A stretch of DNA of 64,000 bases. It comes from Octopus vulgaris (Eukaryota). Shown piece by piece: positions 35,238 through 58,298 of this stretch. The notes under the pieces were generated by a model. That model made no database searches. It saw nothing but the letters and a program-made list of their open reading frames with translations, and was not told the DNA's origin. The translations under genes were made by a program, and so were the position numbers. How positions within the stretch are numbered: position 1 is the first letter of the stretch; the number at the start of each line of letters is the position of its first letter. The DNA lies in NCBI GenBank assembly GCA_951406725.2, contig OX597814.1:173476001-173540000 (forward strand). The letters run 5' to 3'.

Positions 35238-35575
35238 GGGCGGTGGGTTGGCAGAAGCGTTAGCACGCCGGGCGAAATGCTTAGTAGTATTTCGTCTGCC
35301 GTTACGTTCTGAGTTCAAATTCGCCGAAGTCAACTTTGCCTTTCATCCTTTCAAGGTCGATAAATTAAGTACCAGTTACGCACTGGTGTCGATGTAATCA
35401 ACTTAATCCCTTTGTCCTTGTTTGTCCTCTCTATGTTTAGCCTCTTGTGGGCTATAAAGAAATAAGAATCGTTAGCACGCCGGGCAAAGTACTTTGCGAC
35501 ATTTCGTCCGTCTTAACGTTCTGGGTTCAAATTCCACCGAGGTCGGCTTTGTCTTTTATCCTTTCGGGATCTTTG
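35238..35575 (+). mobile_element. Tail-A SINE nested in an older SINE head
   Basis: After the tail AAAGAAATA the sequence restarts at AGAATCGTTAGCACGCCGGG with a more diverged copy. Confidence 0.78.
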
Positions 35576-36787: not shown

Positions 36788-39700
36788 AGAAGAAGAAGAA
36801 GAAGAAGAAGAAGAAGAAGAAGAAGAAGAAGAAGAAGAGAAAGAAGAAGAAGAAGAAGAAGAAGAAGAAGAAGAAGAAGAAGAAGAAGAAGAAGAAGAAG
36901 AAGAAGAAGAAGAAGAAGAAGAAGAAGAAGAAGAGAAAGAATAAAAATAAGAAGAAAAGGAAGAAGAAGAAGAAGAAGAAGAAGAAGAAGAAGAAGAAGA
37001 AGAAGCGAAAGAAGAAGAAGAGAAAGAAAGAAGAAGAAGAAGAAGAGAAAGAAGAAGAAGAAGAGAAAGAAAGAAGAAGAAGAGAAAGAAAGAAGAAGAA
37101 GAAGAAGAAGAAGAAGAAGAGAAAGAAGAAGAAGAAGAAGAAAAGAAAGAAGAAGAAGAAGAAGAAGAAGAAGAAGAAGAAGAAGAAGAAGAAGAAGAAG
37201 AAGAAGAAGAAGAAGAAGAGAAAGAAGAAGAAGAAGAAGAAGAAGAAGAAGAAGAGAAAGAAGAAAAAGAAGAAGAAAAAGAAGAAGAAGAAGAAGAAGA
37301 AGAAGAAGAAGAAGAAAGAAAGAAGAAGAGAAAGAAAGAAGAAGAGAAAGAAAAAAGAAGAAGAGAAAGAAAGAAGAAGAAGAAAGAAGAAGAAGAAGAA
37401 GAAGAAAGAAGAAGAAGAAGAGAAAGAAAGAAGAAGAAGAGAAAGAAAGAAGAAGAGAAAGAACAAGAAGAAGAAGAAGAGAAAGAACAAGAACAAGAAG
37501 AAGAAGAAGAAGAAGAAGAAGAAAGAAGAAGAAGAAGAAGAAGAAGAAGAAGAAGAAAGAAGAAAAAGAAGAAGAAGAAGAAGAAGAAGAAGAAGAAGAA
37601 GAAGAAGAAAGAAAGAAGAAGAAGAGAAAGAAAGAAGAAGAAGAAGAGAAAGAAAGAAAGAAGAAGAAGAGAAAGAAAGAAAGAAGAAGAAGAGAAAGAA
37701 AGAAGAAGAGAAAGAATAAGAAGAAGAGAGAAAGAAAGAAGAAGAGAAAGAAAGAAGAAGAAGAGAGAAAGAAAGAAGAAGAGAAAGAAAGAAGAAGAGA
37801 AAGAAAGAAGAAGAAGAGAGAAAGAAGAAGAAGAAGAGAAAGAAAGAAGAAGAGAAAGAAAGAAGAAGAAGAAGAGAAAGAAAGAAGAGAAGAAGAAGAA
37901 GAAGAGAAAGAAGAAAAGAAGAGAAAGAAGAGAAAGAACAAGAAGAAGAAGAAGAAGAAGAAGAAGAAGAAGAGAAAGAAGAAGAGAAAGAAGAAGAAGA
38001 AGAAGAAGAAGAAGAAGAAGAACAAGAACAAGAAGAAGAAGAAGAAGAGAAAGAAGAAGAAGAAGAAGAAGAAGAAGAAGAAGAAGAAGAAGAAGAAGAA
38101 GAAAGAAGAAGAAGAAGAAGAAGAAGAAGAAGAAGAAGAAAGAAAGAAAGAAGAAGAGAAAGAAAGAAAGAAGAAGAAGAAGAAGAAAGAAGAAGAAGAG
38201 AAAGAAAGAAGAAGAAGAGAAAGAAAGAAGAAGAAGAGAAAGAAAGAAGAAGAAGAGAAAGAAAGAAGAAGAAGAGAAAGAAAGAAAGAAGAAGAAGAAA
38301 AGAAAGAAGAAGAAGAAGAGAAAGAAAGAAGAAGAGAAAGAAAGAAGAAGAAGAAGAAGAAGAAGAAGAAGAAGAAGAAGAAGAAGAAGAAGAAGAGAAA
38401 GAAGAAGAAGAAGAAGAAGAAGAAGAAAGAAGAAGAAGAAGAAGAAGAAGAAGAAGAAGAAGAGAAAGAAGAAGAAGAAGAAGAAGAAAGAAAAGAAGAA
38501 GAAGAAGAAGAAGAAGAAGAAGAAGAAGAAGAAGAAGAAGAGAAAGAAGAAAAAGAAGAAGAAAAAGAAGAAGAAGAAGAGAAAGAAAGAAGAAGAAGAA
38601 GAAGAGAAAGAAAGAAGAAGAAGAAGAAGAAGAGAAAGAAAGAAGAAGAGAAAGAAAGAAGAAGAAGAAGAGAAAGAAAGAAGAAGAAGAAGATAAAGAA
38701 AGAAGAGAAGAAGAAGAAGAGAAAGAAGAAGAAGGAGAGGAAGAAGAAGAAGAAGAAGAAGAAGAAGAAGAAGAAGAAGAAGAAGAAGAAGAAGAAAAAG
38801 AAGAAAAAGAAGAAGAAGAAAGAAAGAAGAAGAAGAAGAAGAAAGAAGAAGAAGAAGAAGAAGAAGAAGAAGAAAGAAAGAAAGAAGAAGAGAAAGAAGA
38901 AGAAGAGAAAGAAGAAGAAGAAGAGAAAGAAAGAAGAAGAAGAAGAAGAAGAAGAAGAAGAAGAAAAGAAAGAAGAAGAAGAAGAAGAAAAGAAGAAGAA
39001 GAAGAAGAAGAAGAAGAGAAAGAAGAAGAAGAAGAAGAAGAAGAAGAAGAAGAAGAGAAAGAAGAAGAAGAAGAAGAAGAAGAAGAAGAAGAAGAAGAAG
39101 AAGAAGAAGAAGAAGAAGAAGAAGAAGAAGAAGAAGAAGAAGAAGAAGAAGAAGAAGAAGAAGAAGAAGAAGAAGAAAAGAAGAAGAAGAAGAAGAAGAA
39201 GAAGAAGAAGAAGAAGAAGAGAAGAAGAAAGAAGAAGAAGAAGAAGAAGAAAGAAGAAGAAGAAGAAGAAGAAGAAGAAGAAAGAAGAGAAGAAGAAGAA
39301 GAGAAGAAGAAGAAGAAGAGAAAGAAAGAAGAAGAGAAAGAAAGAAGAAGAAGAAGAGAAAGAAAGAAGAAGAAGAAAGAAAGAAGAAGAGAAAGAAGAA
39401 GAAGAGAGAAAGAAAGAAGAAGAAGAAGAAGAAGAAGAAGAAGAAGAAGAAGAAGAAGAAAGAAGAGAAGAAGAAGAAGAAGAAAGAAGAAGAAGAAGAG
39501 AAGAAGAAGAAGAAGAGAAAGAAAGAAGAAGAAGAAGAAGAAGAAGAAGAAAGAAAGAAGAAGAAGAAGAAGAAGAAGAGAAAGAAAGAAGAAGAGAAAG
39601 AAAGAAGAAGAGAAAGAAAGAAGAAGAAGAGAAAGAAAGAAGAGGAAGAAGAAGAAGAAGAAGAGAAAGAAAGAAGAAGAAGAGAAAGAAAGAAGAAGAG

Positions 39701-41915
39701 AAAGAACAAGAAGAAGAAGAAGAAGAAGAAGAAGAGAAAGAAGAAGAAGAAAAGAAAAGAACAAGAAGAAGAAGAAGAAGAAGAAGAAGAAGAAGAAGAA
39801 GAAGAAGAAGAAGAAGAAGAAGAGAAAGAAGAAGAAGAAGAAGAAGAAGAAGAAGAAGAAGAAGAAGAAGAAGAAGAAGAAGAAGAAGAAGAAGAAGAAG
39901 AAGAAAAGAAGAAGAAGAAGAAGAAGAAGAAGAAGAAGAAGAAAGAAGAAGAAGAAGAAGAAGAAGAAGAAGAAGAAGAAGAAGAAGAAGAAGAAGAAGA
40001 AGAAGAAGAAGAAGAAGAAGAAGAAGAAGAAGAGAAAGAACAAGAAGAAGAAGAAGAAGAAAGAAGAAGAAGAAGAAGAAGAAGAAGAAGAAGAAGAAGA
40101 AAGAAAGAAGAAGAAGAAGAAGAAGAAGAAGAAGAAGAAGAAAAAGAAGAAGAAAAAGAAGAAGAAGAAGAGAAAGAAAGAAGAAGAGAAAGAAAGAAGA
40201 AGAAGAAGAGAAAGAAAGAAAGAAGAAGAAGAGAAAGAAAGAAGAAGAGAAAGAATAAGAAGAAGAGAGAAAGAAAGAAGAAGAAGAAGAAAGAAGAAGA
40301 AGAAGAAGAAAGAAGAAGAAGAAGAAGAAAGAAAGAAGAAGAAGAAGAAGAAAGAAGAAGAAGAAGAAGAAGAAGAAGAAGAAGAAGAAGAAGAAGAAGA
40401 AAGAAGAAGAAGAAGAAGAAGAAGAAGAAGAACAAGAAGAAGAAGAACAAGAAGAAGAAGAAGAGAAAGAAAGAAGAAGAAGAAGAGAAGAAGAAGAAGA
40501 GAAAGAAAGAAGAAAGAAGAAGAAGAAGAAGAAAGAAAGAAGAAGAAGAAGAAAGAAAGAAGAAGAAGAAAGAAGAAGAAGAAGAAGAAGAAGAAGAAGA
40601 AGAAGAAAGAAAGAAGAAGAAGAAGAGAAAGAAAGAAAGAAAGAAGAAGAGAAAGAAGAAAAGAAGAAGAAGAAGAAAAGAAGAAGAAGAAGAAGAAAGA
40701 AGAAGAGAAAGAAAGAAGAAGAAGAAAAAAGAAGAAGAAGAGAAAAGAAAGAAGAAGAGAAAGAAAGAAGAAGAGAAAGAAAGAAGAAGAGAAAGAAAGA
40801 AGAAGAGAAGAAGAAGAAGAAGAGAAAGAAAGAAGAAGAAGAAGAAAAGAAAGAAGAAGAAGAGAAGAAAGAAGAAGAAGAGAAAGAAGAAGAAGAAAGA
40901 AAGAAGAAGAAAAAGAAGAAGAAGAAGAGAAAGAAAGAAGAAGAGAAAGAAAAGAAGAAGAGAAAGAAAGAAGAAGAAGAGAAAGAAAGAAGAAGAGAAA
41001 GAACAAGAAGAAGAAGAAGAAGAAGAAGAAAAGAAGAAGAAGAAGAAGAAGAAGAAGAAGAAGAAGAAGAAGAAGAAGAAGAAGAAGAAGAAGAAGAAGA
41101 AGAAAAGAAGAAGAAAGAAGAAGAAAAAGAAGAAGAAGAGAAAGAAGAAGAAGAAGAAGAAGAAGAAGAAGAAAGAAAAAAGAAGAAGAAAAAGAAGAAG
41201 AAAGAAAGAAGAAGAAGAAGAAAAGAAGAAGAAGAAGAAGAAGAAAAGAAGAAGAAGAAGAAGAAGAAGAAGAAGAAGAAGAAGAAGAAGAAGAAGAAGA
41301 AGAAAAGAAAGAAGAAGAAGAAAGAAGAAAGAAAGAAGAAGAAGAGAAAGAAGAAGAAGAAAGAAGAAGAAGAAGAAGAAGAAGAAGAAGAAGAAAGAAG
41401 AAGAAAGAAGAAGAAGAAGAGAAAAGAAGAAGAAGAAGAAGAAGAAGAAGAAGAAGAAGAGAAAGAAAGAAGAGAGAAAGAAAGAGAAGAAGAAGAAGAA
41501 GAAGAAGAAGAAGAAGAAGAAGAAGAAGAAGAAGAAGAAAGAAAGAAGAAGAAGAAGAAGAAGAAGAAGAAGAAGAAGAAGAAAGAAGAAGAAGAAGAAA
41601 GAAAGAAGAAGAAGAAGAAAGAAGAAGAAGAAAGAAGAACAAGAAGAAGAAGAAGAAGAAGAAGAAGAAGAACAAGAACAAGAAGAAGAAGAAGAAGAAG
41701 AAGAAGAAGAAGAAGAAGAAGAAGAAGAAAGAAGAAGAAGAAGAAGAAGAGAAAGAAAGAAGAAGAAGAAGAAGAAAAGAAAGAAGGAGAAGAAAGAAGA
41801 AGAAGAAAGAAAGAAGAAGAAAGAAGAAGAAGAAGAAGAAGAAGAAGAAGAAGAAGAAGAAGAAGAAGAAGAAGAAGAAGAAGAAGAAGAAGAAGAAGAA
41901 GAAGAAGAGAAAGAA
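36788..41915. repeat. ~5.1-kb (GAA)n-based polypurine tract with GAGAAA/GAAA variants
   Basis: The plus strand is almost exclusively A and G. It generates the 1200-1800-aa poly-K/R/E and poly-F/L/S pseudo-ORFs. Confidence 0.97.
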
Positions 41916-42828
41916 GATGATGATGGTGGTGGTGTTGGTGGCGGTGGTGGTGGTGATGGTGGTGGTGGTGGTGGTGGTGGAGGAAGATGGTGAAAGAAGG
42001 AACGAAGAAGGATGAAGTGGAATAAAGAAAATGGCTTAAGACTTTAAACAGAGGAAGCAGGCTTCGGTCGGATCGAAAAGAGAGGCAAAGCAAAAGAAGA
42101 AGCTAGCTATATCTTTAATGGGTCACGCAAGAGGATTCAGCATCGGCGAGGAATCAATTAAGCGTTTCTACTGGTGCTTACCATAGTATCAGTTACATTT
42201 AGCGTGTGTAAAAATAATGTATTTCATCACGGGACTCATCAATCTGTCAAAGAACAAATTGTTTTTCCCTCCTTGCCAGTCATGATAGGCACAAATCCTT
42301 CAATTGCCAAACTACTGTCTCTTTCTTATTCAATTTTATTTCTTTGTCCTTCCTTCGCTTTCGCTTCACATGTACATATCTCGAACAGAGTGAATGCGGT
42401 TTTAATTTCTCTACCGCCTTTTCTTTACCTGCTTGTCTTACTTTATCATATCTTATCTTACCTTATCTTGCCTTAATTTACCAAGTAGGAGCCGTAACTG
42501 ATTGAGTATTTAGAATATCGAGGTATCGAATTGCTTGCCAAGCTGATACGATGTTAGTTTCGTACGCACTGACACCGGTGTTGTGATGTGTTCTGTTTCT
42601 GATAAACACGCTGAACACTGATCGGTACTCAATTTTTACTTAAGCTCTAAGAACCACGAAGATATATAATTCATTTCACCGATACAGTGTAGACAGTAAG
42701 AGATTGTGTAACTTCAAAAGTATTTCTTTGGTTTTGTTGTGCTGATCTTTTCCTGAGTTCAAACTCAGCAAGAGGCAGCACTAAGTATATAAATGATTTT
42801 TTTTTTTTTCATATAAATAAAAATTACA

Positions 42829-43400
42829 ATTCTTTTCTACTCAAGGCCCGAAATTTTGGGGGAGGGAACCAGTCGATTAGATCGACCCCTTTATGTAACT
42901 GTTAATTTATCGACCCCGAAAGGATGAAAGACAAAGTTGACCTCGGCGGAATATGAACACAGAATGTAAAGACAGACGAAATACATATTTCTTTACTACC
43001 CACAAGGGGCTAAACACAGAGCGGACAAACAAAGACAGACAAACGGATTAAGTCGATTATATCGACCCCAGTGCGTAACTGGTACTTAATTTATCGACCC
43101 CGAAAGGATGAAAGGCAAAGTCGACCTCGGGGGAATTTGAACTCAGAACGTAACGGCAGACGAAATACCTATTTCTTTACTACCCACAAGGGGCTAAACA
43201 CAGAGCGGACAAACAAAGACAGACAAACGGATTAAGTCGATTATATCGACCCCAGTGCGTAACTGGTACTTAATTTATCGACCCCGAAAGGATGAAAGGC
43301 AAAGTCGACCTCGGTGGAATTTGAACTCAGAACGTAACGGCAGACGAAATACCGCTAAGAATTTCGCCGGGCGTGCTAACGCTTCTGCCAGCTCACCGCC
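42829..43400 (-). mobile_element. SINE trimer (two tail-A units, terminal tail-B unit)
   Basis: Same units and GAAATA|(G/T)GTATTTCG junctions as the other arrays. Confidence 0.9.
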
Positions 43401-47932: not shown

Positions 47933-48449
47933 ACCACTTCTCTCTCTCCTTCTCTCTGTCACATTCACACACATAACATACAGACACATACACATAACAT
48001 GCACACACACAAACACACACATACACGCTCGCAAACACACATAATCACGTAGGCCCGCGTATCTATACACACATACACACACCACTGTGACGCACTCATG
48101 TACACACAGATAGTGGTACACACATGCACAAAGACACACACACAGACAAACGCATACGCACACGCGAGAATGCGTGTCAGAGACAAAATGAGTAAGGTCA
48201 AAAGGACGGAGATGAGAGAATGTGATACACATATACAATCTACACTAACACACACAAATACAGAGTTTCAGACACATTCACACATTTATAACCAAAGTTA
48301 TATGCGGTCATATGTTTTTCAAAAATAGTGATATATGCAGTCTATCGAACATTTAATAAAGAATCTATGTGGCTTTATTACTGAAACTAGCAGCAATATC
48401 TAACAATATTATATCTAGCAAACGAAGTCGGCAAGCTAGAAGAATCGTT

Positions 48450-48600
48450 CGGCCGGAGGTTCACTCGGTTCGTCCGTCGATGAAGAGCGCGGCTATCCGC
48501 ATAAACTGATGCGAATTGCAGGACTCAGAGAACATCGACACTTCGAAGGCACATTGCGGCCCCGGGATCCCATCGTCCCGGGGCTCCGTCCGGTCGATTT
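48450..48600 (+). pseudogene. Dispersed near-full-length 5.8S rRNA copy
   Basis: TCACTCGGTTCGTCCGTCGATGAAGAGCGC...GAATTGCAGGAC...AACATCGACACTTCGAAGGCACATTGCGGCCCCGGG...CCCGGGGC matches conserved 5.8S motifs. No ITS, 18S or 28S context. Confidence 0.92.
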
Positions 48601-48602
48601 TT

Positions 48603-49220
48603 GAAGGCGGCGAGCTGGCAGAAACGTTAGCACGCCGGGCGAAATGCTTAGCGGTATTTCGTCTGCCGTTACGTTCTGAGTTCAAATTCCGCCGAGGTCG
48701 ACTTTGTCTTTCATCCTTTCGGGGTCGATAAATTAAGTACCAGTTACGCACTGAGGTCGATATAATCGACTTAATCCGTCTGTCTGTCCTTGTTTGTCTC
48801 CTCTGTGTTTAACCCCTTGTGGGTAGTAAAGAAATCGGTATTTCGTCTGCAGTTACGTTCTGAGTTCAAATTCCGCCGAGGTCGACTTTGCCTTTCATCC
48901 TCTCGGGGTCGATAAATTAAGTTACGCACTGGGGTCGATGTAATCGACTTAATCCTTTTGTCTGCCCTTCTTTGTCCCCCTCTATGTTTAGCCCCTTGTG
49001 GGCAATAAAGAATAAGAATCGTTAGACCGCCGGGTAAAACGCTTAGCGGCATTTCGTCTGTCTTTACGCTGTGAGTTAAAATTCCGCCGAGGTCGACTTT
49101 GCTTCCATCCTTTCGGGGTCGATAAAATAAGTACCAGTTGCGTACTGGGGTCGATGTAATATAATAGCACCCGCCCCACTTCCCCAAATATTTCAAGCCT
49201 TGTACCTATAGCAGACAGAA
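48603..49220 (+). mobile_element. Tail-A SINE dimer (48603-49013) followed by the remainder of an older tail-B SINE
   Basis: Full head, two units, restart at AAGAATCGTT. The old head remnant is at about 48425-48449. Confidence 0.88.
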
Positions 49221-57879: not shown

Positions 57880-58298
57880 TACCTATTTCTTTACTACCCA
57901 CAAGGGGCTAAACACAGAGAGGACAAACAAGGACAGACAAACGGATTAAGTCGATTATATCGACCCCAGTGCGTAACTGGTACTTATTTAATCGACCCCG
58001 AAAGGATGAAAGGCAAAGTCAACCTCGGCGGAATTTAAACTCAGAACGTAGCAGCAGACGAAATACCTATTTCTTTATTACCCACAAGGGGCTAAACACA
58101 GAGGAGACAAACAAGGACAGACATAGGTATTAAGTCGATTACATCGACCCCAGTGCGTAACTGGTACTTAATTTATCGACTGCGAAAGGATGGAAGGCAA
58201 AGTCGACCTCGGCGGAATTTGAACTCACAACGTAACGCAGACGAAATACCGCTAAGAATTTCGCCCGGCGTGCTAACGTTTCTGCCAGCTCGCTGCCT
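57880..58298 (-). mobile_element. Tail-A SINE dimer
   Basis: Two units with the GAAATA|GGTATTTCG junction. Confidence 0.9.

Follow-up and report, generated by a model that had tools for sequence, protein, structure and literature searches.

5.8S rRNA–SINE fusions form a recurrent class of independent chimeric retrocopies in the octopus genome

Chimeras uniting a small RNA with a retroposon are already known, mainly with U6 as the donor, and the parts of the literature drawn on here offer several points of comparison. Doucet et al. 2015 (PMC4476161) described U6–SINE chimeras built on the platypus Mon-1 and the Anolis AnolisSINE2 elements and attributed them to template switching; the same paper mentions tripartite chimeras and reports that the stringent L2/RTE LINEs make only chimeric U6 copies, and the word "rRNA" has no occurrence in its main text. 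In human, fusions of LINE-1 with U6, U3, U5, 5S, 28S, tRNA and Y RNA have been recorded (PMC13174262, PMC6789731); the main text of the former does not mention 5.8S, nor do six supplementary files. SINE families headed by rRNA sequences include SINE3, derived from 5S, and SINE28, derived from 28S (PMC10946416), and no 5.8S-derived element figures in the covered parts of the SINE table of that paper. The R2 element jumps in vivo from its own template onto U12 snRNA and mature tRNA, the retained CCA being proof of an RNA template (PMC3414825). Human retropseudogenes of Pol I rRNAs are described as underrepresented (PMC5322556), and in Caenorhabditis elegans the CDE-1 and SUSI-1(DIS3L2) system uridylates 5.8S rRNA for decay, with 1–6 U on the 3′ ends and a germline-localised enzyme (PMC7472701). 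A literature search over titles and the openings of abstracts, outside subscription journals and Repbase/Dfam, found no class of 5.8S–SINE chimeras. Within the literature searched, it is thus the 5.8S donor class that is the new element here, and 5.8S chimeras elsewhere may merely be unsurveyed. The repeat annotation on which the human survey was based may not list 5.8S.

The window considered here, that is, the whole stretch of 64,000 nucleotides of Octopus vulgaris DNA that was analysed, lies on contig C1 and carries such a fusion on its forward strand, where a sequence-only reading had proposed a 5.8S rRNA–SINE chimera within a single 10-bp target-site duplication (TSD). This proposal is confirmed by a match to Rfam RF00002 at 48444–48603 (81.1 bits, E 1.6e-18; the sole gathering-score match in the window), by alignment to a SINE consensus built from 33 copies (family A) and by the rebuilding of an older SINE of the same family that hosts the insertion. 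Positions 1–15 of the head of this older SINE, placed by aligning the empty site against the family consensus, occupy 48425–48439; they are followed by the left TSD AAGAATCGTT (48440–48449), which also represents positions 16–25 of the older SINE, a single extra C (48450), the 5.8S copy (48451–48597), a linker, TTTTTG, that is not templated by ITS2 and is probably the oligo-U tail of a 5.8S RNA (48598–48603), a full-length SINE of family A, 232 nt long from its first base (48604–48835; 226/232 or 97.4% to consensus), a second SINE unit (48836–49013; 168/176 or 95.5%), the right TSD AAGAATCGTT (49014–49023) and the remainder of the older SINE up to about its position 163 (49024–49161). The small-RNA copy thus lies directly 5′ of the retroposon in the same orientation. 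The earlier description named a full SINE head and two units; the second unit is headless and starts at about SINE position 50. The 5.8S part, described as near-complete and sense, is indeed sense, but both of its ends are clipped: compared, as that reading had suggested, with the species' own 5.8S, taken from the rDNA array on contig C20 (about 18-kb spacing; genome of 2.8 Gb), it spans positions 7–153 at 92.5% over 147 nt, with position 1 set at approximately position 1 of the Rfam model.

The absence of ITS1 and ITS2 from this copy and its untemplated 3′ bases point to a processed RNA as its origin. The reading of the copy as a dispersed rDNA fragment, a DNA-level orphon, is not supported, the ITS flanks being absent here and kept in 29 other hits of the genome. 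Besides position 127, where it holds an older C allele, the copy differs from the present rDNA at 10/147 sites, as against 14/408 in the SINE units, an excess that is not significant (p=0.098). Putative A-box-like (about 48616–48626) and B-box-like (48680–48690) elements lie in the inserted SINE, whose RNA folds modestly better than shuffled sequences (z −1.9); ARAGORN reported no tRNA gene in the window. Headless 184-bp tandem units starting at 49–51 are common in family A (31 of 87 tail-ending units) and are seen in the window at 1502–2053, 42902–43353 and 57880–58250 as well as at 48836–49013, so the extra headless unit of this locus is a routine feature of the family. The window further contains a 5.1-kb AGA microsatellite of about 1669 copies (36788–41917), the source of its extreme strand skew.

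The claim that the flanks join into an older SINE is also borne out. With the insert taken out, 48400–48449 continues into 49024 onward as one contiguous SINE matching the consensus at 142/162 from position 1, the empty site being rebuilt against the family consensus. The match between the two copies of AAGAATCGTT extends no further on either side. Taken by itself, the 10-mer carries little weight: most of it belongs to the head motif of the SINE, its first letters resemble the SINE tail, and it recurs behind such a tail at 35464, where a left copy is missing. What qualifies it as a TSD is that the older SINE is restored once the insert and one of the two copies are taken out. At 35239–35571 in the window and at locus L019, the unit behind a SINE tail begins at about head position 17 (4 of 87 cases), a hint that insertion favours the AGAATCGTT motif of older SINE heads as its target.

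The window element is one of at least 39 independent 5.8S–SINE insertions in the genome and hence belongs to a recurrent class. We took all 40 scored matches of a DNA search (of 121 candidates) together with all 76 matches to an internal 18-mer (control 0), yielding 82 loci with 84 5.8S hits. Of these hits, 29 are flanked by ITS or by other rDNA sequence, and the remaining 55, in 53 loci, are free of ITS; counted among the 53 are L042, L081 and L082, which extend a little way into the spacer and might be leftovers of rDNA. A SINE was counted as adjoining if it lay between −12 and 30 nt from the 3′ end of the 5.8S copy, a distance at which the background chance of a SINE head is 0.64–0.85%. By this measure a sense SINE lies directly 3′ of the 5.8S copy in 39 of the 53 ITS-free loci (33 full heads and 6 5′-truncated) and an antisense SINE in none; the flank-blind subset, comprising the loci that hold the internal 18-mer, gives 27 heads and 5 truncated SINEs among 46. 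The event which the sequence-only reading had considered as a single template switch is supported as one insertion of 5.8S and SINE together, though not as a lone one. The full heads fall into five seed families (24 A, 3 C, 3 D, 2 B and 1 F; the letters are our own labels), with chimeric loci as the source of the seeds for B, C, D and F; each of these seeds was compared with further copies, which for family F number a thin 3–4. In 30 of the 33 full-head fusions the head begins at SINE positions 1–3. TSD-like repeats scoring at least 10 flank 16 of the 39 chimeras, versus 2.1% of 1482 cross-locus pairs, and 13 of these 16 start −2 to +4 nt from the SINE end, while 3 of the 16 are low-complexity or off-position and doubtful; 23 chimeras have no TSD at that score, and several TSDs reach 1–3 nt into the 5.8S sequence. 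Fourteen ITS-free loci have no assigned SINE partner: three (L057, L066, L078) continue into repeats missed by our seeds, and comparison of all fourteen with the translated reading frames of a sample of five LINE copies gave no match.

Several other arrangements of 5.8S sequence were encountered in these searches. Locus L077 contains two inverted 5.8S pieces, each followed by a similar flank, and is not a simple chimera. Dispersed rDNA units or fragments with ITS occur outside the C20 array (L009–L017, L020, L123–L133), including an inverted pair at about 41.395 Mb of C1. One contig of run X1, the nature of which is a guess, holds a 5.8S piece from position 8 with a loose end that by eye resembles the flank of L036.

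Comparable fusions involve other stable RNAs, as judged from top-scoring matches, which are biased to full-length copies. The best 30 of 679 U6 candidates (L084–L113) divide into 7 from the gene array (C1, about 139.42 Mb) and 23 dispersed copies, and 21 of the latter are fused: 12 to a SINE head, 8 to a truncated SINE and 1 as a U6–5.8S–SINE chimera, with 2 having no assigned partner; the 679 candidates suggest hundreds of fusions. Three U6 copies are trimmed to 101–103 and followed by A-runs, and full-length U6 copies have short linkers. The tripartite copy, L022 (1270–1750, minus strand; C7, about 9.559 Mb), consists of full-length U6, CAA, 5.8S positions 7–147 and a full SINE, enclosed in one 15-bp TSD (13/15, by eye) within an older family-B SINE head. 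Among 14 5S loci examined of 47 matches, 10 of the 11 single dispersed copies are fused to a SINE (L146, L153, L174–L182), with linkers that resemble gene trailers and give no evidence of tailing; L151 is a head-to-tail 5S–5S pair. The 39 loci matching the 18S 3′ end are mostly rDNA units or fragments, and three (L142, L184, L188) run directly into a SINE, their 18S part ending at, or at most 3 nt from, the mature 3′ end. Truncated SINEs are the partners in 6/39 of the 5.8S, 8/20 of the U6 and 7/10 of the 5S fusions, many of them starting near position 180–181. At L023, L038, L079, L086, L087, L099, L108, L153, L175, L179 and L181 the 3′ partner is a recurrent SINE tail piece of about 50 nt that starts at 179–181 of family C; it may be a mini-element in its own right or the product of cleavage at a fixed site.

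Set beside the Mon-1 and AnolisSINE2 chimeras as given in the main text of their description (PMC4476161), the octopus loci share the placement of a sense small RNA 5′ of the SINE within one TSD; unlike those, they draw on Pol I rRNA (5.8S, and also 18S ends) beside U6 and 5S, their SINE partners are mostly full-length and they keep untemplated T-rich linkers. With the human LINE-1 chimeras, in the published parts used here (PMC13174262, PMC6789731), they share recurrent independent fusions with their own TSDs, rRNA donors and the same question of ligation versus switching, whereas the human partner is usually a 5′-truncated L1.

The state of the copied RNA can be approached through the 3′ ends of the 5.8S parts, which lie at position 150 or beyond in 22 of the 39 chimeras, eight of these at 157. 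When L037 and three rows over-extended to position 160 are set aside, the non-empty linkers of 18 near-terminal copies are mixed in composition (99/173 or 57% T, 25% A; median 9 nt), while those of 12 internal-break copies contain 18 T in 84 bases (21%). At least three T among the first six linker bases occur in 16 of 22 near-terminal versus 3 of 17 internal loci (p=0.001), and the matches of linkers to rDNA, SINE or flank show no excess over shuffles (p 0.19, 0.70 and 0.62, respectively). T-richness alone is not diagnostic, because 12 of 25 ordinary SINE copies in this AT-rich genome likewise have at least three T in the six bases before the head; only the contrast between terminal and internal ends is. 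The T-rich linkers at near-terminal ends fit a uridylated RNA, and the template was probably a 3′-trimmed, U-tailed 5.8S rather than the intact mature 5.8S that had at first been named. Such a tail would have a counterpart in C. elegans, where, in the parts of that study used here, 5.8S bears 1–6 U, as against the 5 T of the window linker; there uridylation is shown on the RNA itself, whereas here it is read from DNA, with longer and mixed linkers (PMC7472701). In 27 of the 39 chimeras the 5.8S part begins between +5 and +9, as it also does in L022, where U6 adjoins upstream. The mature 5.8S may be shorter at its 5′ end, an intermediate of decay may have been copied, or microhomology may have guided the joining.

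The chimeric structure can be accepted and the T-rich linkers still regarded as non-templated additions by the reverse transcriptase or as filler from DNA repair, an alternative that is compatible with a template jump and that we consider unlikely, though worth keeping in sight. Such bases would account for the mixture of T and A in the linkers, and the T criterion is also satisfied by many flanks of ordinary SINE copies (12 of 25). Non-templated addition before a template jump is known for R2. Against it, the linkers that this enzyme makes at internal breaks are A-rich (21% T) or missing, plain SINE copies with a TSD have 0–2 extra bases in 6 of 7 cases, and the U6 copies trimmed to 101–103 have A-runs while the full-length ones have short linkers.

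We consider it probable that the fusions originate through an end-to-end jump during target-primed reverse transcription, from the SINE's 5′ end onto a 5.8S RNA that had been trimmed and probably uridylated, entered at its 3′ end, with a dead-end chimeric retrocopy as the outcome. The order 5.8S–linker–SINE is sense and lies within one TSD, the junctions, targets and SINE families are distinct, the linkers at near-terminal 5.8S ends are T-rich and untemplated, and U6, 5S and 18S are fused alike. Reverse transcription would start at the SINE tail, at the window locus inside the head of the older SINE; on reaching the SINE 5′ end, the LINE enzyme would engage some plentiful and stable RNA at its 3′ end and copy any tail present there; it would then stop, or anneal to the target, near 5.8S position +5 to +9, and repair would complete the TSD. 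Such RNAs would have no LINE-recognised tail and so would be nearly confined to riding behind a SINE as a route into the genome. The R2 jumps, in the parts of their description used here (PMC3414825), are similar in running end-to-end onto a stable RNA and in preserving a post-transcriptional 3′ addition in DNA, but R2 is a site-specific LINE with few such cases, whereas here there is a genome-wide SINE-borne class with heterogeneous U-rich additions. As to the source of the enzyme, no SINE tail was found among the 30 top reverse transcriptase loci (150 scored of 56077 candidates), and sensitive alignment of the SINE tails with five of these loci gave shuffle-level scores. A very young and abundant LINE family (L199–L221; L218, for example) has frames of up to 949 aa and copies 95–99.5% identical; it ends in an ATT repeat and has no tail in common with the SINEs tested.

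The same products would be expected if ligation came first, with an RtcB-type ligase joining 5.8S RNA bearing a 2′,3′-cyclic phosphate to a 5′-OH SINE RNA and the joined molecule then being retrotransposed whole, a route demonstrated for human U6/L1 in the part of that work used here (PMC6789731). It predicts the sense order, the single TSD and the preserved oligo-U, all of which are found, and it stays alive because many partners are truncated at a fixed position, about 180–181, as cleaved 5′-OH fragments would be. DNA alone does not tell an end-to-end jump from RNA ligation, as both keep tails. Nevertheless, the 30 of 33 heads that begin at SINE positions 1–3 would presumably have presented a triphosphate end, which, in the same source, much reduces RtcB ligation (PMC6789731). 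The donors, too, include 5S, 18S and A-tailed ends, and some junctions have no linker or overlap (L022, L037, L050, L055). Pol III transcripts carry a triphosphate at their 5′ ends, and 5S, 18S and A-tailed RNA ends are not expected to bear a cyclic phosphate. The full-length heads, the overlap junctions, the variety of donors and the tripartite copy hence favour the jump, and prior ligation appears to us quite unlikely.

That 5.8S retrocopies came first and SINEs were inserted later at their T-rich 3′ ends is very improbable. SINEs are dense (19 heads in the 64-kb window) and do insert into SINEs, many chimeras have no detectable shared TSD, and the divergences of the 5.8S and SINE parts are only weakly correlated (rho 0.32, p=0.13, n=24). 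Against this, 39 sense arrangements and no antisense one were found, TSDs enclose both parts, removal of both parts restores the host SINE and few stand-alone 5.8S copies have a clear TSD.

Each copy bears the marks of an independent origin. The window junction, whose genome-wide search the sequence-only reading had proposed as a check on its idea of a new 5.8S–SINE family, has one match, both exactly and at 3 mismatches, and all 39 junctions differ; an apparent common junction of three rows at position 160 came from over-extension of the alignment through GGCGG, and their letters differ. No sequence closer to the window 5.8S copy than the rDNA was found among the best 40 of 121 candidates, and a search for the 5.8S 3′ end followed by TTT returned five distinct loci, all already within the locus set. 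The 39 copies hold 304 substitutions, 135 of them CpG transitions, and no diagnostic mutations of a master copy were detected among them: two non-CpG alleles are shared in 3 of 741 pairs, no more than under the null (mean 1.6, 95th percentile 3.05). Position 127 is C in 31 of the 39 and T in the present rDNA array; because the T copies are less diverged (p=0.002) and C occurs in 5 of 27 ITS-bearing fragments, all of them diverged, C is taken as the older rDNA allele. A true 5.8S-headed family amplified from a master copy is thus largely refuted and retains next to no probability, for although there are dozens of dispersed copies, 5′ ends clustering at +5 to +9, eight 3′ ends at 157 and two non-CpG alleles in common between the window copy and each of L022 and L027 (two of the three pairs noted), every linker is different, the partners come from five SINE families and the allele sharing stays within the null. 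The chimeras resemble SINE3 and SINE28, as covered in the published table (PMC10946416), in that a SINE-like element begins, 5′, with sequence derived from rRNA, but those are amplifying families with a shared head, whereas no copy has multiplied here. We know of no internal promoter in 5.8S. With the Pol III promoter presumably placed in the head of the SINE, and thus downstream of the 5.8S part, later transcripts would omit the latter and no 5.8S-headed family could grow.

The frequency with which a nucleolar Pol I product serves as a chimera donor is unexpected. The question of template switching versus RtcB ligation is directly touched by these junctions, which are dated, arose independently, number in the dozens and join full-length Pol III heads, and frequent head capture need not yield a new SINE family, because the captured head brings no promoter. 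As the dispersed 5.8S hits in this genome are dead retrocopies, they are not to be annotated as rRNA genes. The fusions likely form as the enzyme, on coming to the end of the SINE, passes to an abundant RNA, whose added U-rich tail is probably preserved in DNA. More tentatively, and as a joint proposal that we would place a little short of an even chance, SINEs in this lineage may routinely carry stable RNAs that bear a decay tag into the germline genome, leaving a datable fossil record of RNA 3′-end surveillance (oligo-U where 5.8S is trimmed; oligo-A where U6 is, and on internal 5.8S fragments), of older rDNA alleles and possibly of a mature 5.8S 5′ end about 6 nt inside the usual position. 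If the linkers are indeed RNA tails, genomes would preserve intermediates of germline rRNA quality control, which could be mined.
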